NCBI GenBank assembly: GCA_007376445.1
Contig: VMGF01000003.1
Location: 31,024 to 95,023, forward strand
DNA from: Parcubacteria group bacterium Gr01-1014_3
Lineage (GTDB): Bacteria; Patescibacteriota; Minisyncoccia; UBA6257; WO2-44-18
Reading direction: 5' to 3'
Length of the DNA stretch: 64,000 nt
Positions 9,042-63,744 of the stretch are shown here, piece by piece. How positions within the stretch are numbered: the stretch's first letter is position 1; every line of letters begins with the position of its first letter. The notes beneath the pieces were generated by a model. It was not told the origin of the DNA and made no database searches. It saw nothing but the letters and a program-made list of their open reading frames with translations. Both the position numbers and the translations under genes were made by a program.

Positions 9042-9852
9042 TGATTTTGAAAAGTTTCGCGGCGTTTTTATACATTACATATTCCATATCCGTCTTGGAA
9101 ATTCCCAGCTTTTTCACATATTTAATATATTCTTTCGGACCAGCGAGCGGCCAATCCGTGCCGAAAATAAGTTTACGGGGCGTCTGTGAATACGCGATCA
9201 GCTCCTTGATCTTCTGTATCGTCATTTTGCCATAAGGCGAGTTAAACCCGTCATGCAAAAACAAACCGGAAATATCGGCATAAACATTCGGATTCCTATA
9301 CAGAACTTCGGCGCAGTCCATCATCCAGGGATTCCCAAGATGCGCTATCACTATCTTTAGATTCGGAAAATCTACTGCCACCTCATCAACACCGAGCGGA
9401 TGCGCGTATTTCACTTTCGCGAAAGTCTTGTAGGCGAGCGTGTCTCCTGTATGGAAAATTACTGGTACGCCCAGTCGGTCGCACATTTCATAGATCGGTC
9501 GCGCGACCGAATCGCCTGGATAGAAATGCTGATAACCGAGGTAAAGTTTAACTCCGACGATCTTTTTCAGCCGGATCAAAACCTCCAGCCGATCCAAATC
9601 TTGCTTGGTGTATTCAGACACGTTCAAAGAACCAATCACATGCAGATTTGAAAGTTCTTCGGTTAATTTGATAAGCGTGTCCGTGGAGGGACCAGTGCCA
9701 TCCTCGCCTCGCCAATTCGCGATCACCAACGCGTGATCCACTTTATTCTTCTTCATCTCCGCTAAAAGAGCGCTTCTTATTTCTTCATAGGACTTTTTAG
9801 CGAACGGAGTATTTTCCAGCTTTGTTATGTGTGTGTGCGCGTCTATGATCAT
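9034..9852 (-). CDS. metal-dependent amidohydrolase (amidohydrolase-2 / TIM-barrel family)
   Basis: IDAHTH N-terminal metal-binding motif, HTGD, IAHLG motifs. Confidence 0.65.
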   Translation of the reverse strand: MIIDAHTHITKLENTPFAKKSYEEIRSALLAEMKKNKVDHALVIANWRGEDGTGPSTDTLIKLTEELSNLHVIGSLNVSEYTKQDLDRLEVLIRLKKIVGVKLYLGYQHFYPGDSVARPIYEMCDRLGVPVIFHTGDTLAYKTFAKVKYAHPLGVDEVAVDFPNLKIVIAHLGNPWMMDCAEVLYRNPNVYADISGLFLHDGFNSPYGKMTIQKIKELIAYSQTPRKLIFGTDWPLAGPKEYIKYVKKLGISKTDMEYVMYKNAAKLFKINV

Positions 9853-9854
9853 GG

Positions 9855-9927
9855 AGCCACCTCCCGGAATCGAACCGGGGACCTTTGCTTTACGAAAGCA
9901 CTGCTCTACCAGCTGAGCTAAGGTGGC
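9855..9927 (-). tRNA. tRNA-Thr (anticodon CGT), copy 1
   Basis: Manual cloverleaf on minus strand: GCCACCT...AGCTGGTAGAGC...loop TTCGTAA...TTCGATT...AGGTGGC; CCA may be encoded (9852-9854). Confidence 0.7.
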
Positions 9928-9934
9928 TTTGACG

Positions 9935-9966
9935 TTATATTATAACATTTCCCGAGTTTTTCCAAA
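9935..9966 (-). promoter_or_regulatory. sigma70-like promoter for tRNA-Thr copy 1 (TTGGAA -35, extended TGTTATAAT -10); duplicated at 10236-10280
   Basis: Minus strand reads TTGGAAaaactcgggaaatgtTATAAT 8 nt before the tRNA 5' end. Confidence 0.55.
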
Positions 9967-10075
9967 GAAAATAAGAGCAGGTGACGAGAATCGTCCGGTC
10001 ATACGACCGGACAGCCCAGTCGGATGACTGGGCGAACTCACGTCTCTACTTTACCCCGCACCTTTTCTCGATTAG

Positions 10076-10147
10076 AGCCAGAGAGAGGAGTCGAACCTCC
10101 AACCCCTCCCTTACGAAGGGATTGCTCTGCCATTGAGCTACTCTGGC
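10076..10147 (-). tRNA. tRNA-Thr-like (anticodon CGT), copy 2, flanked by 35-bp inverted repeats
   Basis: GCCAGAG..GCTCAATGGCAGAGC..loop TTCGTAA..GGAGGTTCGACTCCTCT..CTCTGGC; 27-43 mismatch. Confidence 0.6.
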
Positions 10148-10181
10148 AAATTTTATACGTGATCGAGAAAAGGTGCGGGGT

Positions 10182-10218
10182 TTACGAAAGTAGTGTTCTA
10201 CCACTGAACTATATCGGC
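10182..10218 (-). pseudogene. tRNA 5'-half fragment (acceptor, D-arm, anticodon stem-loop CTACT-TTCGTAA), no 3' half
   Basis: GCCGATATAGTTCAGTGGTAGAACACTACTTTCGTAAA then runs into inverted-repeat sequence; no complementary 3' acceptor nearby. Confidence 0.45.
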
Positions 10219-10284
10219 GTCTCTCTTTATTTAAATACTAGGTCATATTATAACATTTTGCGGATTTTTTCAAAGAAAATAATG

Positions 10285-10356
10285 AGCGGATAACGGGAGT
10301 CGAACCCGTGTCTGATCCTTGGGAAGGATCCATAATAGCCGTTATACGATACCCGC
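10285..10356 (-). tRNA. tRNA-Gly (anticodon CCC)
   Basis: GCGGGTA..GTATAACGGCTATTAT..GGATCC-TTCCCAA..ACGGGTTCGACTCCCGT..TATCCGC. Confidence 0.75.
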
Positions 10357-21374: not shown

Positions 21375-21636
21375 AAATCAATCATATCTTTTCAAAACAT
21401 CTCCGTCAAAATACCCACGCACTAATTTTGCTTTTTCAATATTTAAACTTTTATATCTTTAAGTCTTATCTAAATTAAAACAGCGATACGCTAGGGATCA
21501 CGGCTATTCGCCGCCCGCGTATCGCTGTTTATATATCTGCAAAATTAGTACGGGGTTATCGTTTTGTAACTAAAATTCCTTCGCTTTTAGCTTGGAATTT
21601 TAGACAAAGCCGATAAAAAAGACCCCAATTAGGGGT

Positions 21637-27204: not shown

Positions 27205-27780
27205 ATGTCGCTTACTTATAATGAACTCAAACCTGGCGCTGTCTTCATGTATGAGGGTCAGCCGTATGAAGTCTTGGAATTCGAGTTTTTGCGCATGCAA
27301 CAGCGTAAACCAGTGGCGCAGACCAAGATCAAAAACCTAGTGACGGGTAAAATTTTGGAACGAAATTTCCATCAAAACGAAACCTTTGAAGAAGCGGAGA
27401 TCGAAAAGCACCAGATCAAATATATGTATAATAGCCGCGGAGAATACTGGTTCTCCGAGCCGAAGGATTCATCCAAGCGCTTCTCAATAAAAGAAGAGGC
27501 TTTGCCACCGGCGGTTAGATTTTTGAAAACAAATACCGAAGTTACGGCCAACAAGATGGGAGATGAGATCATCAGCGTGCAGGTACCGGTCAAAGTTGAG
27601 TTAATGGTCAAAGAGGCTCCTCCGGGCGGCAAAGGCGATACCGTGACTGGCGGTGATAAGAAAGTGGTGCTGGAAACCGGCGCGGAAGTTACCGTTCCTA
27701 TGTTCGTGAATACTGGGGATATTATCAGGATCAATACCGCGACGGGGCAATATACAGAAAGAGTTGAGAAGTCCAAATAA
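27205..27780 (+). CDS. efp: elongation factor P
   Basis: KOW-like N-domain (VFMYEGQPYEVLEF) and two OB domains. Confidence 0.85.
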   Translation: MSLTYNELKPGAVFMYEGQPYEVLEFEFLRMQQRKPVAQTKIKNLVTGKILERNFHQNETFEEAEIEKHQIKYMYNSRGEYWFSEPKDSSKRFSIKEEALPPAVRFLKTNTEVTANKMGDEIISVQVPVKVELMVKEAPPGGKGDTVTGGDKKVVLETGAEVTVPMFVNTGDIIRINTATGQYTERVEKSK

Positions 27781-27784
27781 AAAA

Positions 27785-27805
27785 CCGCTCAGTGAGCGGT
27801 TTTTT
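27785..27805. terminator. terminator CCGCTCAGTGAGCGG + T-run (bidirectional, shared with tgt)
   Basis: Hairpin and T tract. Confidence 0.7.
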
Positions 27806-29012
27806 ATTTGGACTTGGCTAACTTTTCTCGAATCTTTCGGAATAGATTTTCCATAAACCAAAGGTTATGAGCGGTAGCCAAGATCGGGCCAAGCATCTCC
27901 CCTGCGCGGAAAAGATGAGCCAAATATGAACGGCTATAGTTTTTACAGGTATAGCAGCCGCACTTTTTGTCGATCGGATTTTTGTCTTCCAGATTTTTAG
28001 CGAGTTTTAAATTAAATCTTCCACCCTCCACCAAAGCCGCGCCATTCCTGGCCAGCCGGGTCGGGGCCACGCAATCAAAAGTATCCACGCCGGCCATTAC
28101 GGCTTTTTCTATATCCTCCGGAGAGCCGATGCCCAAAAGATGCCGAGGTTTTTCCTCTGGTAAAAGCGGCATAATCCAGTCCAGGATTTTATACATATCC
28201 GACTTGATCTTGCCCATCGCGCCGCCAATACCCACACCATCAAAACCTAAATTGCCGATTACTTTGGCTGATTCTTTGCGCAGATCCTCAAATACACCAC
28301 CCTGAATCACGCCATATAAAGCCTGCCGCCCAATGGGATTGGGCGAGCCTCGCCCAGAATGGGCGGGCTTTTTGTGTTTGAAAGCTTCCAGACAACGGAC
28401 CGCCCAGCGATGCGTGCGCTTCATAGAGCGCTTGGTATATTCATAGTCGTGAAGCGGAGAGGTGCACTCATCAAAAGCAAAAATTAAATCAGCGCCAAGA
28501 TTTTCCTGAATTTGGATAGATTTTTCCGGGCTGATGAAATGGCTCGAGCCGTCGATATGCGAGCGGAACTCCACGCCCTCCTCGCTGATCTTGGTCAGTT
28601 TCTCTTTTTTAGGAATCGCGTGCTCCGCCTCGCCCTCGCGTAAGACCCCGGTCTTTTCTCCGGGGAAAATATTGGCAACTTTACCCACGCCATGCTCCAG
28701 GGCCGCGCCTAAACTGAATACCTGAAAACCGCCGCTGTCCGTCCAGATCGGCCGGTCCCAATTCATAAACTTATGAAGTCCGCCCATTTTTTTAACTATC
28801 TCATCGCCCGGGCGGAGATAGAGATGATAGGTATTACAAAGCAAAGAATCAGAGCCGATTTCTTTAAGTTGATCCACGGTCAGGCCCTTGATGGCCGCCT
28901 GTGTGCCAACCGGAATAAAAGCCGGCGTATGGATCACTCCATGCGCGGTTTTTATAATGCCTAATCTTGCTCGAGTCCTATTTGATTTTTTAATAATTTG
29001 AAAGATTCCCAT
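27804..29012 (-). CDS. tgt: queuine tRNA-ribosyltransferase
   Basis: ARLGIIKTAHGVIHTPAFIPVGT N-terminus, catalytic Asp region, CCxC...H zinc site. Confidence 0.9.
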   Translation of the reverse strand: MGIFQIIKKSNRTRARLGIIKTAHGVIHTPAFIPVGTQAAIKGLTVDQLKEIGSDSLLCNTYHLYLRPGDEIVKKMGGLHKFMNWDRPIWTDSGGFQVFSLGAALEHGVGKVANIFPGEKTGVLREGEAEHAIPKKEKLTKISEEGVEFRSHIDGSSHFISPEKSIQIQENLGADLIFAFDECTSPLHDYEYTKRSMKRTHRWAVRCLEAFKHKKPAHSGRGSPNPIGRQALYGVIQGGVFEDLRKESAKVIGNLGFDGVGIGGAMGKIKSDMYKILDWIMPLLPEEKPRHLLGIGSPEDIEKAVMAGVDTFDCVAPTRLARNGAALVEGGRFNLKLAKNLEDKNPIDKKCGCYTCKNYSRSYLAHLFRAGEMLGPILATAHNLWFMENLFRKIREKLAKSK

Positions 29013-41864: not shown

Positions 41865-44048
41865 CTATTCCAGTTTTACGGAGAGTAATCGCGAAGTTCC
41901 ATCGCTTCCCATCGTAACGCCATACATGATATCCGCCGATTCCATGGTGGCGCGATTATGCGTGACAATAATAAACTGAGTTTTGGAAGAAAAATCTTTA
42001 ACCAGTTCCGCGAACTTTCGCGCGTTGCGTTCGTCCAGGGCGGCATCTACTTCATCAAGCACCAAAAACGGCGGTGGACTGACGGAAATCAAGGCAAACA
42101 AAACCGCCACGGACACCAAGGCCTTTTCTCCGCCAGAAAGCATTTCGAGGCCACTGATCTTTTTGCGAGGAATACTGATGCCCATCTCAATGCCACCGTG
42201 GTCGAATTTATGGTCCTCCTCCCTTTCCGCCGCCCCCTGCCTACCGGCAGGCAGGTCCTCCACCATCGCTTCCTCGGCTTCACTTATAATTTTCTTTTCT
42301 TTTTTAACCAGAGTTAGCTTTGCTGATCCGCCGTCGAAAAGCAGTTTGAAATATTTATTGAATTCTTCGTTGATGGACTTGAGCGCGCTGTTAAATTCTC
42401 CGTGAATTTTCTCATCCAAGTCATTAATAAGTAAGGCGAGATCGGCTGAAGCTTTTTTCAAATCTTCATTTTGCGCGGACAAAAAATTGTAGCGTGATTC
42501 AGTTTCCTGCGCTTCTTTAACTAGCGCCGGATCAAGATCACCAATACCAGCCAACTCCGCGCGCAGCTTGAACATCCGCTTCTCCATCTCGGCGAAATCG
42601 CTAGTCTTTCCGCCCGAGGCGGATCCTCGTTGGGAGGAAAATTCATGCAATCGGCGGCCAGATTGCATCGCCAGGTTTTCCAGTTCTTTCCGGCGGATCT
42701 CTACTCTTTCTCTTTCAAATAAAATTTTATTCTTCTCGGTATCCAGACGCGCCATCTCATCTTTTTTCTGCTCGACTAATTCAAAGGCTCTCCGGAAAGT
42801 GCCGGTGAACTGCTTGAGCGTGTCGTTGAGGTGGCTTTCCGCCTCCCTAAGCTTATTTAAATCAGCGTCCACCGTCTGAATATCCGCCATCGCCTTTTTC
42901 TTAGCACTATCCAATTCAGCGATCTTTTCATCCCGGCCGGAATTATCTGCCTGCAAGCTGTCATCGATACGCTTGATCAGCTTTTGCAAAAGCGACTTCA
43001 CTGCGCCAAAATCGCCTTCATTTAATACCGCGCCAATCGCGCCCTTCACTTCCTCAAGCAGTTTCACCGCCTCCGCGGCTTTAATTTCGCTCTTCGGCTG
43101 AGCCGCCAAAAACTCCATCTGCGCCTCCAAACGGCCAAGTTCTTTTTGAAGTAAAGATTTCCGGTTTAGAACATCGCTCTGCTGTTTTTTAAAATCGTTG
43201 AATCCTTTGTCGTCGGAAGGCTGAGCTTTTTCTACTTTATGTAATTCTTCCTGTAATTTTCTTAATTCTTGATTCTTGATTCCTACTTCCTGATTTATTT
43301 TTTGGATCTGCGGTTCAATGGCGGAAAAATCCGATTCGATCACGCCGAGTCTTCCGCTGAAATAATTTTCCTCCAAAGTTCGCAATTCTTTTTCGACTTC
43401 GGCATGCTTTTCCCAACGCGTGGTCTGGCGTCTTAATAACCGAAGATGTGGCAGTATCTCCTGCACCATCGCCTCCACCTTATCGAGGTTGATCTTGGTA
43501 TTCTTCAGTTTATTCTGCGCCTCATGCTTTTTGAGCTGATACTGACGAAGGCCGAGTACCTCTTCGATCATCTCGCGCCGTTCTTCCTGGCTAGCCCGCA
43601 CGAATAGATCGCTACTGCCCTGGTTTATGATAGAAAACCCTTTTGTGCCGAGGCGGGCTTTGGCAAAAAAATCGATAATGTCTTTTAAGCGGACCTCCGA
43701 GCCATTTAATAAATATTCCGAAGTGCCATCGCGGCTAATCTTGCGGGTAATCGCGATCTCGGTGTAATCAATGGGAAAAAACCGGGTGCTGTTGTCGAAA
43801 ACAATGGTCGCCTGCGCCATACCAACACGCGGGCGCTCCGGCGTGCCAGCGAAGATCAGATCTTCCGCTTTGGCGCCACGGATATTTTTCGCTTCGCGTT
43901 CACCCAAAAGCCAACGCAAAGCGTCGATGACATTCGATTTACCAGAACCATTCGGACCAACAATAGCCGTGATTCCAGCCGGAAAATCGAGCGTGGTTTT
44001 GGAAACAAATGACTTAAAACCCACCAGCTCTAACTGCTTAAGTAGCAT
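41865..44048 (-). CDS. smc: SMC-family chromosome segregation ATPase (short, 727 aa)
   Basis: N-terminal Walker A GPNGSGKSN, long coiled coil, C-terminal LSGGEKALVSVAVLFAL...LDEVDAALDE. Confidence 0.8.
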   Translation of the reverse strand: MLLKQLELVGFKSFVSKTTLDFPAGITAIVGPNGSGKSNVIDALRWLLGEREAKNIRGAKAEDLIFAGTPERPRVGMAQATIVFDNSTRFFPIDYTEIAITRKISRDGTSEYLLNGSEVRLKDIIDFFAKARLGTKGFSIINQGSSDLFVRASQEERREMIEEVLGLRQYQLKKHEAQNKLKNTKINLDKVEAMVQEILPHLRLLRRQTTRWEKHAEVEKELRTLEENYFSGRLGVIESDFSAIEPQIQKINQEVGIKNQELRKLQEELHKVEKAQPSDDKGFNDFKKQQSDVLNRKSLLQKELGRLEAQMEFLAAQPKSEIKAAEAVKLLEEVKGAIGAVLNEGDFGAVKSLLQKLIKRIDDSLQADNSGRDEKIAELDSAKKKAMADIQTVDADLNKLREAESHLNDTLKQFTGTFRRAFELVEQKKDEMARLDTEKNKILFERERVEIRRKELENLAMQSGRRLHEFSSQRGSASGGKTSDFAEMEKRMFKLRAELAGIGDLDPALVKEAQETESRYNFLSAQNEDLKKASADLALLINDLDEKIHGEFNSALKSINEEFNKYFKLLFDGGSAKLTLVKKEKKIISEAEEAMVEDLPAGRQGAAEREEDHKFDHGGIEMGISIPRKKISGLEMLSGGEKALVSVAVLFALISVSPPPFLVLDEVDAALDERNARKFAELVKDFSSKTQFIIVTHNRATMESADIMYGVTMGSDGTSRLLSVKLE

Positions 44049-54917: not shown

Positions 54918-55015
54918 TTGCCGCCTCCTTGCCCCGCCATCGGCGTGGGCTGAAAAAAGGTTGTAAACTAACTGCTGGATATGTTAACCAATTTCCTTGA
55001 ATTTGTCAAATCATC

Positions 55016-55047
55016 CCACCCCACTATCACATGTGATAGTGGGGTGG
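55016..55047. promoter_or_regulatory. 32-bp perfect palindrome CCACCCCACTATCACATGTGATAGTGGGGTGG overlapping the promoter (TATAAT at 55048-55053) of the HTH gene
   Basis: Palindrome immediately followed by TATAAT and an 11-nt leader. Confidence 0.7.
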
Positions 55048-55064
55048 TATAATATTCATTACTT

Positions 55065-56185: not shown

Positions 56186-57907
56186 ATGAAAGAGAATGGG
56201 TCTCTCGAAAATATACGGCACTCGCTCGCCCATCTTTTGGCGGCGGCGGTTTTGAAAAAATACCCGGACGCTAAACTCGGCATCGGTCCGGTGATTGAGA
56301 ATGGATTTTATTATGATTTCCTCCTGCCAGCCGCTCTGACCCCGGAAAATCTCAAAGAATTTGAGAAAACGATGAGGAATCTGGTAAATCAGAAGCTCCC
56401 TTTCTCTGGCAAAGAAGTCAGCGCCGCGGAAGCCAAAAAACTCTTCAAAGATCAGCCATTCAAGCTAGATCTCATAAAAGAATTCGCTAAGGATAAAAAA
56501 CCAATGACCGTATATTCAACCGGCGAGGTCTTTATGGATCTCTGTCGCGGCGGTCATGTGGAAAGTACATCGGAAATCAACGCCGAATCCTTCAAGCTCG
56601 ACAAACTCGCCGGCGCTTATTGGCGCGGTGATGAGAAAAAGCCACAACTCCAGCGTATCTATGGCTTGGCTTTCGCCTCGAAAAAAGAGCTCGAAGAATA
56701 TGTAAAAATGCGCGAAGAAGCTATTAAGCGCGATCACCGCAAGCTCGGTAAAGACCTCGAGCTCTTTTCGATCATTGATGAAATTGGTCCTGGCCTTCCC
56801 CTCTTTTATCCAAAAGGCGCGCTTCTCCGCCGCTTAGTAGAAAATTATATTATTCAGCTTCAGGAACAACGCGGCTATGAGCCGATCTGGATTCCCCACA
56901 TCACCAAAGGCGAGCTTTATAAGATCTCCGGCCATCTGGATAAATACGACGCCATGTACCCGCCGATGAAGCTCAAGAACGAAGCGGATTATTATCTGAA
57001 ACCGATGAACTGTCCGCACTTCATGATGCTTTATAAAACCCTGCCGCATTCCTATAAAGAGCTTCCAATCCGCTGGACCAGCACTACCACCAATTATCGC
57101 TATGAAAAATCCGGCGAACTCTCCGGCTTAACCCGCGTCCGCTCGCTCACCCAGGACGACTGCCATGTCTTCGCCCGGCCCGATCAGATCTCCGGAGAAA
57201 TAAATCTTATGCTGGATATGATCGCGGAAGTATACGAAAAATTCGGCTTTAAGGATTTCTGGGTCCGCATCTCCACTCATGATCCGAAAGATAAGACGAA
57301 ATACATCGGTGATCCGAAAATCTGGGAAGAATCGGAGGCGACTCTGACAAAGCTAATCGAAAATCGCGGCTGGAAACACGAAATCGGCGTGGGCGAAGCG
57401 GCTTTCTATGGACCGAAGCTGGATTTCATCTTCAAAGACGTTCTCGGCCGCGAATGGCAACTCTCCACCATTCAGCTGGACATGAACCTGCCGGAAAGAT
57501 TTGAATTGGAGTACGTCGGTGAAGACGGAAAGAAACAAAGGCCCGTGGTCATTCACCGCGCCATCCTCGGCTCTACAGAACGCTTCCTCGGAATTTTGAT
57601 AGAACATTTTGGCGGCAACTTCCCTCTCTGGCTCGCGCCGGTGCAGATCCGCATCATCCCTATCGCCGACCGGCATCTGGATTACGCCAAGAAAGTCGCC
57701 GCTCAACTCAAAGATTATCGAGTAGAGATTGCCGGCGAAAGCGAAACTATGGGTAAAAAAATCCGCGCCGCGGAGATGCAAAAAATTCCATTTGTCTTAA
57801 TCATGGGCGATGAAGAAGAAAAATCCGATACTGTCAGCGTGCGTGAAGGTCACAAGGGTGATCAGGGCAAGATGACAATAGCCGATCTCCTAAAGAAGTT
57901 AGTATAA
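56186..57907 (+). CDS. thrS: threonyl-tRNA synthetase lacking the N-terminal TGS domain
   Basis: HSLAH editing motif at the N-terminus, class II core, anticodon-binding domain. Confidence 0.9.
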   Translation: MKENGSLENIRHSLAHLLAAAVLKKYPDAKLGIGPVIENGFYYDFLLPAALTPENLKEFEKTMRNLVNQKLPFSGKEVSAAEAKKLFKDQPFKLDLIKEFAKDKKPMTVYSTGEVFMDLCRGGHVESTSEINAESFKLDKLAGAYWRGDEKKPQLQRIYGLAFASKKELEEYVKMREEAIKRDHRKLGKDLELFSIIDEIGPGLPLFYPKGALLRRLVENYIIQLQEQRGYEPIWIPHITKGELYKISGHLDKYDAMYPPMKLKNEADYYLKPMNCPHFMMLYKTLPHSYKELPIRWTSTTTNYRYEKSGELSGLTRVRSLTQDDCHVFARPDQISGEINLMLDMIAEVYEKFGFKDFWVRISTHDPKDKTKYIGDPKIWEESEATLTKLIENRGWKHEIGVGEAAFYGPKLDFIFKDVLGREWQLSTIQLDMNLPERFELEYVGEDGKKQRPVVIHRAILGSTERFLGILIEHFGGNFPLWLAPVQIRIIPIADRHLDYAKKVAAQLKDYRVEIAGESETMGKKIRAAEMQKIPFVLIMGDEEEKSDTVSVREGHKGDQGKMTIADLLKKLV

Positions 57908-58133
57908 GGGCTTCAGCGGCCGTTTTTTCTTCGCCCTCGGCGCGCCGCTCCGACTTAAGTCGGAGACCGATTATAGGATAGTCCAGCCGGCGCGCCTCCC
58001 CACGGCCCCGCTAAAAGCGGAGCCTCGCCGTTGGCGGGGCGTGGCGGGATGTTCCGAAAAATTAATTGGCCTCCGCTTTGTTAAATAAAGGAAATTATAT
58101 ATAGAAAAACCCCGTCCTTTCAAGGGCGGGGTT

Positions 58134-60660: not shown

Positions 60661-61143
60661 TTATTTATTATCTGTTGGCGGTAAACCGGTCAAATCTCTC
60701 GGAATGACAACGCGGATAACCTCAGCGTCAGCCCTTCTCCGATCCAGGATCCTCACCGCGCACGCGAAGACGCTAATGGGTTTTTTGTCCTTATTTCTGA
60801 AAACGGTAGTCAGTACACCCACATAATCTTTACCGGAAAAAAATTCCCAATCCTTGCCGCGTAAGATCGCGTAACCATTATAATACTCTTCCGTTTTTAA
60901 TCCCCATATCTTTAGCACCTGGCCATATCCAAAAATTTCAATCGCTATGCCATCCGCGCTTCCAGAAGGGTCCTCGTATGTAGTTTCATAACCGCACCAA
61001 AATGGATTTTCGCCGTCTCCTTCATCGGGAGATTTTTTGAGAAAGTCGGGTCTATTAGGGGCGTAGAAAAATGACTTTCTTTCGATTAATTTCCAGGACG
61101 TGAAATCCGGCACCGGGCTTTTAGCCATTTTGGTTTCCTTCAA
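60661..61143 (-). CDS. hypothetical protein, paralog of 58134..58550
   Basis: See paralog motifs above. Confidence 0.5.
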   Translation of the reverse strand: MKETKMAKSPVPDFTSWKLIERKSFFYAPNRPDFLKKSPDEGDGENPFWCGYETTYEDPSGSADGIAIEIFGYGQVLKIWGLKTEEYYNGYAILRGKDWEFFSGKDYVGVLTTVFRNKDKKPISVFACAVRILDRRRADAEVIRVVIPRDLTGLPPTDNK

Positions 61144-61200: not shown

Positions 61201-61722
61201 TTACATGTCCCCGATCCAGGGACGAAGCCATTCGTAAACAGCGTCAAAGTCCATCGGATCACCCTGTGGGCGCTCCATCGTGAAGACCTGCTCCTTCTCG
61301 ACAATCGACATGATCCACTCTTCCTCATGCGGCTTCAAGAGAAGCACGGTGATATCGAGAGCATGCGAGTGAGAAATTTCCGCCTGCGTGTTGCTGCCAA
61401 TATAGCCATGGGACTTGGACTGGCCTTCCAGCGCAGTCGGATTAAAAACAAGGCAGAGGCCGCCCAGGGTACGGGTTTTGCGCAGCTTGCTGAAATGGCT
61501 GAGCACCATACCCGGCACCTTCGCCTTGTAGGCTGAAGATTTCATGCGAAGACGCTCCGGCTTCCGGATGAACTTCTTCCGATGGCGTCGGAAATTCGGT
61601 TGAAAAACCAGAACCCCGCGTTTTTGGAGATAGCTCACAAAACTATCAATCGAAGCCTTATATCTTTGACTGGCGCAAATCACCAGAGGTCGCTTCAAAC
61701 CCAATGGAAACTCCTTAAACAA
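61201..61722 (-). CDS. hypothetical protein, possibly Rossmann-like nucleotide-binding
   Basis: ORF only. Confidence 0.35.
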   Translation of the reverse strand: MFKEFPLGLKRPLVICASQRYKASIDSFVSYLQKRGVLVFQPNFRRHRKKFIRKPERLRMKSSAYKAKVPGMVLSHFSKLRKTRTLGGLCLVFNPTALEGQSKSHGYIGSNTQAEISHSHALDITVLLLKPHEEEWIMSIVEKEQVFTMERPQGDPMDFDAVYEWLRPWIGDM

Positions 61723-62335: not shown

Positions 62336-62412
62336 AAAACCTCCTAAGAACTTCTGGGATTGTACAAAATAAAAACCGCCCTCGCAAGTACATTCAGTAC
62401 ACTTTCTAGCGA

Positions 62413-62547
62413 GACAATAATCATTTTTCGGAACATGTCGGAGCCCAGACAGCTTGGTTTTTCGCGAAGCGAAAATGTCTGGGCGAGAGAGAAGAAAATC
62501 CGGCTGCTAGAGCCGGATTATTCTGTTTCCGAAAAATGATTATTGTC
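62413..62547. ncRNA. about 135-nt structured element: 23-bp outer inverted repeat (GACAATAATCATTTTTCGGAAAC) enclosing three inner hairpins; lies where rplA/L1 leader would be expected
   Basis: Perfect outer stem plus inner hairpins CCCAGACA...TGTCTGGG, TTTTCGCGAAGCGAAAA, AATCCGGCTGCTAGAGCCGGATT; no ORF. Confidence 0.45.
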
Positions 62548-62552
62548 GAAGC

Positions 62553-62981
62553 CTACTTCTCGATTACCTCGATGCCCATATTCCGGGCGGTGCCGGCGAT
62601 GATCCTCATCGCGGCGTCGATATCGTGAGCATTCAGATCTACCATCTTCTTTTCCGCGATCGCGCGGACATCGGCCTGAGTAACTTTACCAACTTTCTTC
62701 TTGTTCGGTTCGCCGGAACCCTTTTCAATACCAGCGGCTTTTTTCAATAAAGAAGAAGCCGGGGAAGTCTTTAGCTTGAAATCAAAGGTACGGTCTTCGT
62801 AGATCGTAATTACAGCCGGCACTACATCGCCGATCATGTCCTTGGTCGCTTCATTGAACTTCTTACAGAAGTCCTGAATGTTGATACCGTGCGGACCAAG
62901 CGCCGTACCGATTGGCGGGGCTGGATTAGCCTTCCCGGCGTCAATTTGTAGCTTTAAAGTTGTCTTAATAGGCTTTGCCAT
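62553..62981 (-). CDS. rplK: 50S ribosomal protein L11
   Basis: [35 protein letters not shown]. Confidence 0.9.
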
Positions 62982-62999: not shown

Positions 63000-63539
63000 T
63001 TATAATTTTTGAACCTGTAAAGAATCAAGCTCTACTACCGTATCGCGGCCGAAGATGCCTACTAAAACCTTAACTTTGCCTTTTTCCTGGTCAACTTCGG
63101 AAACTTTCGCGTCATAATCCTTAAAAGGACCATCGGTGATCTTCACGGTCTCCCCGACTTGTAAATCCACGTTGAATTTCGCCTCCTTGCCGGCGCCTAT
63201 CCTACCCATCAGCCCATCGATCTCCGCCTGAGACAATGGAGTAGGCGTGGTGGAATCAGAACCTACGAATCCGGTAACACGAGGAGTGTTGCGAACCACA
63301 TACCAAGAGTCCTCGGTCAGAACCATTTCAACCAAAACATACCCCGGATAGATCTTCTCTTCCGCGGTGCGACGCTTGCCGTTTTTTATTTTGATCTTGG
63401 TTTCCTTCGGAACGATGATGTTGAAGATCTTGTCGTTCATTGCCAAAGAATCAACGCGCTGCTTTAAATAACGCGCCACCGCGTCTTCATAACCAGAATA
63501 AGTATGTACTGCGTACCAATGACGTGCTTTATCTACCAT
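63000..63539 (-). CDS. nusG: transcription termination/antitermination factor NusG
   Basis: NGN domain (WYAVHTYSGYE) and KOW domain. Confidence 0.9.
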   Translation of the reverse strand: MVDKARHWYAVHTYSGYEDAVARYLKQRVDSLAMNDKIFNIIVPKETKIKIKNGKRRTAEEKIYPGYVLVEMVLTEDSWYVVRNTPRVTGFVGSDSTTPTPLSQAEIDGLMGRIGAGKEAKFNVDLQVGETVKITDGPFKDYDAKVSEVDQEKGKVKVLVGIFGRDTVVELDSLQVQKL

Positions 63540-63558: not shown

Positions 63559-63744
63559 TTAAAGTAATAATTTACCAAGTAGAAACGTAAAGATATAATC
63601 TAAAACCCCCAAAAACATCGCCACTACGAGCGACATTGCCACGACCGAAACAGTCATGCGCATGGTTTCATTCGCGCTCGGCCAGTTCACCCGCTTAAAC
63701 TCCTGCTGGGATTCCTGTAAAAATGATTTGACTTTGCTTAACAT
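63559..63744 (-). CDS. secE: preprotein translocase subunit SecE
   Basis: Single TM small protein immediately upstream of nusG. Confidence 0.8.
   Translation of the reverse strand: MLSKVKSFLQESQQEFKRVNWPSANETMRMTVSVVAMSLVVAMFLGVLDYIFTFLLGKLLL

Follow-up and report, generated by a model that had tools for sequence, protein, structure and literature searches.

Several described systems resemble the structured element that we report here. The REP, BIME and REPIN sequences of proteobacteria are multi-copy, non-coding and extragenic, often lie just after stop codons, fold into hairpins with compensatory changes, form mosaics of palindromic modules, and can act as terminators or mRNA stabilisers. 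MITEs such as Correia/NEMIS of Neisseria, ERIC/IRU of enterobacteria and BOX/RUP of pneumococci are 100–150 nt long with terminal inverted repeats, are present in tens of intergenic copies that can be near-identical at unrelated loci, vary in presence or absence between relatives, and are co-transcribed with neighbouring genes. Integron attC sites conserve structure over sequence, follow right after ORFs in a fixed orientation, and fold better on one strand. The L11 (rplKA) operon has an autoregulatory site for ribosomal protein L1; such operators are known to be located 5' of the gene that L1 regulates, the E. coli one being upstream of rplK, not downstream.

The element lies behind rplK in a 64-kb window (the whole stretch of DNA analysed here) and shares the listed features of the REP-type repeats, a nested copy and a dispersed 28-nt module being its counterpart to their mosaics, as well as those of the MITEs. 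It differs from REP and REPIN–RAYT systems in that the consensus is without a GTAG-type REP head, no RAYT-like gene was found (a weak test), its unit, about 135 nt long, forms a three-way junction in which loop motifs are conserved, rather than a simple or doublet hairpin, and the host is of a CPR lineage. It differs from the MITEs in that the inverted-repeat ends are its least conserved part, unlike those of classical transposons, in lacking a clear target-site duplication or a known cognate IS, and in showing covariation helix by helix together with a strand-specific wobble bias.

Pfam searches confirm the gene order that an earlier sequence-only reading of this DNA had described (Table 1). 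There is no rplA after rplK, which is followed by a spacer and then by a dCMP deaminase gene (dcd), and rplJ–rplL lie 26 kb away. The absence of rpmG before secE and of rpoB after rplL was likewise correctly noted: only 27 nt separate secE from the end of the preceding GyrB-like ORF, which we take to be a GyrB C-terminus, so that there is no room for rpmG, and rplL is followed by tRNA-Val and then mraZ. The promoter-like site and ribosome-binding site of dcd are both beyond the element on the dcd side, and the spacer stretch past the element (62365–62412) resembles the 3' half of the plain rplK terminators found in the relatives L007 and L028. Two ORFs on the minus strand downstream of dcd (60661–61143, 160 aa; 61201–61722, 173 aa) have no Pfam match; the 173-aa ORF is syntenic with dcd in L007 (42% identity), and weak similarity is seen in several other loci. 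Elsewhere in the window (9852–10356, minus strand) two tRNA-Thr(CGT) genes lie about 150 nt apart, followed by tRNA-Gly(CCC), and a duplicate tRNA-Thr anticodon is somewhat unexpected for so small a genome.

Table 1. Features of the rplK locus, copies of the repeat, and related sequences; positions are those of the window unless a locus (L number) is named.
Feature	Position	Strand	Evidence or remark
secE	63559-63744	-	Pfam SecE, E=1e-18
nusG	63000-63539	-	Pfam NusG + KOW
rplK (L11), final gene of secE-nusG-rplK unit	62553-62981	-	Pfam Ribosomal_L11_N + Ribosomal_L11; stop codon TAG 62553-62555
Spacer between rplK and deaminase gene, 217 nt	62336-62552		
Repeat copy 1, 135 nt	62413-62547		Starts 5 nt after rplK stop; CM 130.5 bits, E=5e-40
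Closing stem, arm 1, 21 nt	62413-62433		Perfect complement of arm 2
Closing stem, arm 2	62527-62547		
Composite hairpin (family helices H4/H5)	62443-62484		Nested tip 62459-62475
Hairpin H6, 9 bp, 5 G-C	62497-62519		Terminator-like on both strands (terminator scan)
Spacer stretch past element	62365-62412	-	Weak hairpin (CTCGC...GCGAG) + GGCGGTTTTTATTTTG (62365-62380)
dcd promoter-like site TTGCGA-17-TACAAT	62387-62359	-	Promoter scan, consensus match only
dcd ribosome-binding site AGGAGG	62345-62340	-	Sequence
dCMP/cytidine deaminase-family gene (dcd), 183 aa	61784-62335	-	Pfam dCMP_cyt_deam_1, E=2.7e-19
rplJ	35952-36533	-	Pfam Ribosomal_L10; unlinked from rplK
rplL	35494-35868	-	Pfam Ribosomal_L12; unlinked from rplK
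Repeat copy 2	41736-41855		CM 98.3 bits; 9 nt after stop of SMC-like gene
SMC-like ATPase gene upstream of copy 2	41865-44048	-	Pfam
Repeat copy 3	57880-58027		CM 65.1 bits; thrS 3' end, between convergent genes
thrS	56186-57907	+	Pfam tRNA-synt_2b/HGTP_anticodon/tRNA_SAD
Assembly break, L001	ends at 1097		
Assembly breaks, L158 and L160	start inside copy 1		
Assembly break, L161	starts inside copy 2		
Second palindromic family, L099	1205-1345, 12782-13023		
Second palindromic family, L130	7928-8092, 4288-4538		
Second palindromic family, L111	409-546		
Second palindromic family, L113	9981-10118		
28-nt module, L117	226-253, 370-397		
28-nt module, L132	2418-2445, 6379-6406		
28-nt module, L111	627-654		
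28-nt module, L130	8022-8049		

The structured element noticed behind rplK is real: its ends form a perfect inverted repeat, 0.02 matches to the arm would be expected by chance, and relative to shuffled sequences its two strands fold with z-scores of -9.6 and -9.95. The outer stem had been put at 23 perfect base pairs; the perfect part is 21 bp, and two more pairs need a bulge. Inner hairpins are also present, albeit as two hairpin domains, one with a nested tip, and not as the three hairpins first described. The CM described below matches this copy at 62412–62545 on the plus strand, which is antisense to rplK. Within the closing stem the inner part, TTTTTCGGAA, is conserved in the family and the outer part, GACAATAATCA, is subfamily-specific. 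The motifs CGGAG and CGAGAG (plus strand), both conserved, flank the composite hairpin. On the minus (rplK-sense) strand H6 is followed by the tail TTCTTCTCTC (62487–62496), and on the plus strand by ATTCTGTTTC; the terminator scan picks out H6 with UUCUUCUCUC when read in the direction of rplK, and picks out H6 in the opposite direction too. As a G+C-rich hairpin with a U-run downstream of a stop codon, H6 has the composition of a predicted intrinsic terminator. The family-conserved loop motif of H6, GCCGCUGGAGC, reads GCUGCUAGAGC in copy 1. The 21-nt arm has no second occurrence in the window at up to three mismatches, from which the element appeared to be unique there; this was overturned by profile and CM searches, which found further copies. 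The same element is present in L002, a strain-level variant with an identical L11 protein. At 570–612 of L002 the H6 variant carries a 25-nt self-complementary insertion exactly at the hairpin tip, and hairpin tips may be hot spots for palindromic insertions.

A covariance model (CM) was built from four copies (R1) and rebuilt from 16 (R2). The window contains three copies, and with filters off the CM finds nothing else above the scores of plain hairpins; copies score 65–130 bits against about 10–20 bits for plain hairpins. Copy 2 is upstream of a phosphoribosyltransferase gene and is followed by a T-run in the sense direction ('sense' denoting throughout the strand co-linear with rplK). Among related genomes the CM recovers 11 copies in 10 MAG loci, all of them close relatives that lack L1. 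Profile searches show two copies in L007, one upstream of secE and one after gyrB, and homologues in L015, besides copy 2 of the window. An exact-pattern scan of metagenome contigs returned 75 stretches, largely from groundwater, in which R2 identifies 63 copies, 56 of them distinct. The CM matches thus total 77, with a density of roughly one copy per 15–20 kb in the contigs sampled; one 49-kb groundwater contig has at least three copies, and L088 has three within 2 kb. In viral contigs there was a single pattern match, which the CM did not confirm, and no copy was found there.

No Rfam 15 family matches the element: in searches of the whole window at gathering score and of loci L099 and L130, only tRNAs reach threshold. 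Between 62200 and 62700 two chance-level matches are all that appear at E≤10, so that neither an L1 leader, another ribosomal protein leader nor any other family is recognised in the spacer. Full-text literature searches found no described CPR repeat or ncRNA of this kind. The structured repeat family itself is well supported, and it is previously uncatalogued, being absent from Rfam and undescribed in the literature searched.

The copies share a common fold, a three-way junction formed by a closing stem (H1 and H2), a long hairpin (H3–H5) and a short hairpin (H6). Pairing fills 90.6% of cells in the 16-sequence alignment, with 35 of the 40 pairs changed on both sides, and 95.2% of cells among the 56 distinct metagenome copies, with compensatory changes at 37 of 40 pairs; these CM alignments are fitted to the model and so favour the structure. 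None of 500 shuffles reached the observed values, and sliding the partners by 1–3 columns left 39–54% of cells paired. An earlier RNAalifold analysis of a plain MAFFT alignment had already given 20 compensated pairs among four sequences, and covariation is strong in all six helices. The unpaired positions are strongly conserved in several motifs (plus strand): GGAAC..CGGAG before H4, GCUUGG inside H4, CGAGRGNGAAGAAAA between the hairpins, GCCGCUGGAGC at the tip of H6, and UUAUUCUGNUUCCGAAAA. Compensatory changes combined with conserved loop motifs point to selection on a folded single strand.

The closing stem behaves differently from this core. Every copy has complementary ends, yet the outermost positions vary by subfamily, only the inner TTTTCGGAAC/GTTCCGAAAA is conserved, and the tips of the stem are the least conserved part of the family. 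Closing stems are subfamily-specific, with GACAATAA(A)T in window copy 1 and L156b and GGGCAACTAC in several others, and in one subfamily the complementarity runs 50–75 nt per arm into copy-specific sequence.

The two strands are not equivalent. Read on the strand antisense to the upstream gene, wobble pairs comprise 115 G-U cells against 43 A-C cells; by column, G-U exceeds A-C in 24 and the reverse holds in four, and the genome set gives 42 G-U against 17 A-C. Folding energy, a measure independent of the model, is also lower for the antisense strand in 12 of 14 copies. Mutational skew was considered as a cause of the G-U asymmetry and rejected, as in the window, where it was tested, the G/T-rich strand is the opposite one. 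Wobble bias and better antisense folding together point to the antisense single strand, whether RNA or DNA, as the one under selection, and a preference for antisense folding is not what a sense-strand terminator predicts.

The position of the copies relative to genes is biased on one side. Of 54 non-redundant copies with a neighbour on the sense 5' side, 41 have that neighbour in the same orientation and 13 in the opposite one (binomial p=1.8e-4); in 28 of the 41 co-oriented cases the model match starts within 25 nt of the stop codon, the usual range being 3–25 nt. Neighbours on the other side are oriented at random (25 versus 22), with just three of 22 convergent stops within 25 nt. Followed out to its true ends, the palindrome frequently starts within the stop codon or directly at it, as in L013, L085, L126, L156b, L083, L015 and L023. 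The closest relatives with the same rplK–dcd junction, L007 and L028, have an ordinary terminator in the spacer and no element. A T-rich tail follows the whole palindrome in the sense direction in seven of 64 copies, a U-run follows the closing stem in the antisense direction in one of 64, and only one subfamily has the U-run after H6. With so few T-rich tails, and the H6 U-run so restricted, termination is not the whole story. We also considered that the outer stem is a pre-existing host terminator; this is clear in L126, L156b, L013 and L085, but it is not general because only seven of the 64 copies have the T-rich tail. No conserved promoter was found upstream in the antisense direction.

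Plain terminators in the window also abut or overlap stop codons, and include unusually long perfect hairpins of 19–22 bp. Terminator-like hairpins with perfect stems of 13–22 bp are found at 40094–40139, 27765–27819, 36609–36642, 55014–55052 and 21476–21532; some of these stems include A/U tracts, and one hairpin overlaps the stop codon at 27804–27806. A nested palindrome of about 100 nt occupies 40945–41076 on the minus strand, between rpsP (40615–40941) and a phosphoribosyltransferase gene (41077–41604). Its near-perfect outer stem of about 32 bp surrounds a terminator hairpin, AGCCACCC-GUAU-GGGUGGCU, with a U-run, and a second U-run follows the outer stem (MFE -79 kcal/mol, z=-11). This is the architecture of the family, a long closing stem around a terminator, with a different core. 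It seems that this genome tolerates, or even favours, palindromes that are long and perfect.

Several observations bear on how the copies came to be dispersed. Many pairs of copies are 85–95% identical without similarity in their flanks, and cores of 92–95% identity stand in unrelated flanks. The L095 copy, for example, matches window copy 1 at 94.8% identity, both inner stems included, differs from it in the closing stem, and sits after another gene, a 133-aa ORF behind a PheT-like gene; the L086 and L107 copies are 94.9% identical at different loci. Orthologous spacers differ in occupancy between related genomes (L131 versus L086 and L149). The family is thus composed of sequences under 300 bp that are non-coding, multi-copy and near-identical at unrelated loci, as in MITEs. 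Contigs of the window's own organism from independent short-read assemblies are broken within copies 1 and 2 (Table 1). Every contig retrieved with the exact proteins of rplK, dcd and the gene beside copy 2 either carries the element or breaks off within it, and no nucleotide-level empty site was recovered at strain level among them. We considered whether the family similarity is an assembly artefact, and this is excluded by the independent assemblies.

The machinery of any such dispersal was sought in the neighbourhood of the copies. Pfam recognised no transposase among nine neighbouring genes, and the genes bracketed by copies include RmuC, nucleotidyl transferases, an RNaseH-like protein and a 5'-3' exonuclease, none of them a transposase. 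Searches for IS200 TnpA and RAYT by tblastn found nothing in 1.73 Mb, although this is a weak test. The flanks often read TC before and TCG after the palindrome, at about 40–50% per position and not generally, and we saw no clean duplication of a target site.

In L099 and L130 a full copy sits where paralogous, larger palindromic repeats have a simple 28-nt hairpin. These larger repeats constitute a second palindromic family, of the form GTTCCGTAGCGAGTGCCGAGGAG...[hairpin]...GAGCGAGCGACGAAAC...GGTAGCTTAGGAAC, which has the same motif vocabulary (CGAG, GGAG, a GCUGG loop), is undetected by R2, and matches nothing in Rfam; two of its copies contain, in place of the central hairpin, a complete and inverted copy of the family described here. 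The 28-nt perfect hairpin module, CCGAGCACTCAACGCTTTGAGTGCTCGG, recurs both alone and inside larger repeats, which suggests a BIME-like mosaic of palindromic modules in these groundwater CPR genomes.

The absence of rplA can be considered separately from the element. No L1 coding sequence was found in the 64-kb window by tblastn with E. coli and Thermus L1 queries, nor at E≤10 in its six-frame translation by tblastn and HMM using eight CPR L1 proteins. A scan with the rplK protein, taking one genome per species, gave 80 loci, among them 37 close loci (L11 identity of 72% or more, with 1.5 kb or more of sequence downstream) and 32 more distant ones. L1 is near rplK in none of the 37 close loci, and neither is rplJ or rplL, whereas rplK–rplA is present in 18 of the 32 distant loci. 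The E. coli and Thermus L1s, the eight CPR L1s and the HMM made from them found no L1 in close loci or element-bearing contigs, and this negative is meaningful because the same queries pick up L1 at 38–55% identity in the distant loci. A large Parcubacteria group without L1, OD1-L1, is described in PMC5220378 (citing Brown et al. 2015), and the L1-less OD1-L1 clade also appears in bioRxiv 10.1101/2022.01.07.475337. The suggestion that this locus fits the pattern of L1-less Parcubacteria therefore holds; the absence of L1 is real at this locus, matches a known trait of the clade, and hence is not new.

Adjacency of rplK and dcd is also seen in L007, L028 and L080. In two L1-bearing loci, L069 (10001–11654) and L077 (10001–15256), the deaminase gene directly follows rplA, in the order rplK–rplA–dcd, and because of this the rplK–dcd junction in the window looks like a clean deletion of rplA. 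A third, L062 (4963–7438), has a dCMP deaminase-family gene after rplA at a distance, and rplJ–rplL are already unlinked from rplKA in all three of these L1-bearing CPR loci. The simplest history suggested by these gene orders would be that rplA was lost by deletion from an ancestral rplK–rplA–dcd arrangement, in a lineage where rplJL was already unlinked.

The sequence-only reading had proposed that the element is a vestigial or repurposed L1-binding leader, and its position is indeed where rplA would be; the junction motif GGAG...GAGAG, to our eye, vaguely recalls L1-binding mRNA sites. The rplK neighbourhood is all that it has in common with the L1 site of the L11 operon. It is 3' of rplK and 5' of dcd and recurs behind SMC-like, thrS, gyrB and numerous other genes; L007 and L028 lack it at this junction and have a plain terminator there instead. 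It matches no ribosomal protein leader in Rfam, and the lineage has no L1 to bind it, as judged from the window, the 37 close rplK loci and the literature. Dispersal over unrelated loci refutes the idea of an L1 relic for practical purposes, and we regard it as scarcely credible. Almost as improbable, in our estimation, is that copies are attC-like sites, in which a recombinase would recognise a single-stranded hairpin as in integron cassettes. The size, the position just after ORFs and the orientation relative to the ORF fit such sites, structure is conserved while stem sequence varies, and the preferred folding strand is antisense to the ORF, as is the bottom strand of attC. Against this, the flanking genes are syntenic housekeeping genes and not cassettes, no integrase was seen near the copies examined, and there are no RYYYAAC/GTTRRRY (R/L) boxes at the hairpin base, where a conserved GGAAC/GTTCC adjoins the junction instead. 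Hammerhead, twister, group II domain V, SRP, 6S and tRNA-like identities were rejected too, their core motifs being absent by eye and Rfam giving no match.

An elaborate bidirectional intrinsic terminator, one of many long hairpins evolved independently in this genome and with neither family identity nor mobility, would account for the terminator-like character of H6 on both strands, which has a U-run behind it when read in sense and a U-rich tail when read the other way. It would likewise account for the location 3–25 nt after stop codons and the terminator at the same place in relatives, and long perfect terminator hairpins of 19–32 bp do occur elsewhere in this genome (40094–40139, 27765–27819, 40945–41076). 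We think this decidedly unlikely, as the copies share an alignable core of about 100 nt with conserved loops and junctions, which ordinary terminators lack and which separates them from plain hairpins by CM score; cores 92–95% identical recur at unrelated loci, and many copies have no U-run at all, most lacking one after the closing stem. The family alignment thus contradicts a terminator-only interpretation and shows the element to be more than that. The strand asymmetry, which compositional skew does not explain, would fit small structured RNA genes or processed antisense RNAs transcribed opposite the upstream gene, in which the conserved GGAG/GGA-containing junction and loop motifs would bind a protein or another RNA. 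Covariation in all six helices and the high conservation of unpaired motifs agree with this, and for want of an Rfam match such an RNA would be a new class. However, no conserved promoter is present, a closing-stem U-run occurs in one of 64 copies, and the transcript would continue into an essential gene, entering it from the 3' end; furthermore, one copy per 15–20 kb, presence/absence variation and nesting are typical of repeats rather than RNA genes, and closing stems are unrelated between near-identical cores. We consider this explanation somewhat unlikely.

With moderate confidence, we favour the explanation that the element belongs to a new structured palindromic repeat family of the REP/MITE kind, and that at this locus it most likely provides the secE–nusG–rplK unit with its terminator and 3'-end structure. 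The family would be restricted to one lineage, with units of roughly 120–150 nt in which a variable closing stem encloses a conserved three-way-junction core with two hairpin domains and unpaired motifs. It would have proliferated through the intergenic spacers of Paceibacteria/Parcubacteria that lack L1, a group of groundwater bacteria with tiny genomes, in the manner of a MITE or REP–BIME element that is mobile or recombining but non-autonomous, with copies settling immediately behind stop codons, where terminators lie, and at other hairpins' tips. Copy 1 would then separate the end of the secE–nusG–rplK unit from dcd, which is predicted to have its own promoter. Most likely H6 and its U-run terminate the transcription of rplK and protect the 3' end. 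The element has nothing specific to do with L1.

A bolder proposal, which we consider somewhat unlikely, is that these copies represent an abundant structured nucleic acid, single-stranded and of a new class, in Paceibacteria that lack L1: either an antisense-encoded three-way-junction RNA at the 3' ends of housekeeping genes, or a structure-specific mobile element, selection in either case being on the strand opposite the upstream gene. As a mobile element it would target hairpin tips, those of terminators and of its own relatives, via the folded strand and without a recognisable transposase.

These observations have consequences for how such loci are read. The region behind rplK is not to be used as evidence for a relic L1 operator. 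Because independent short-read assemblies break in the middle of copies, the family is a practical cause of fragmented CPR metagenome assemblies. A load of about one copy per 15–20 kb in the contigs sampled is notable for genomes thought to be streamlined. The repeat family shapes operon boundaries behind essential genes, and it offers a handle on how repeats spread in CPR bacteria.
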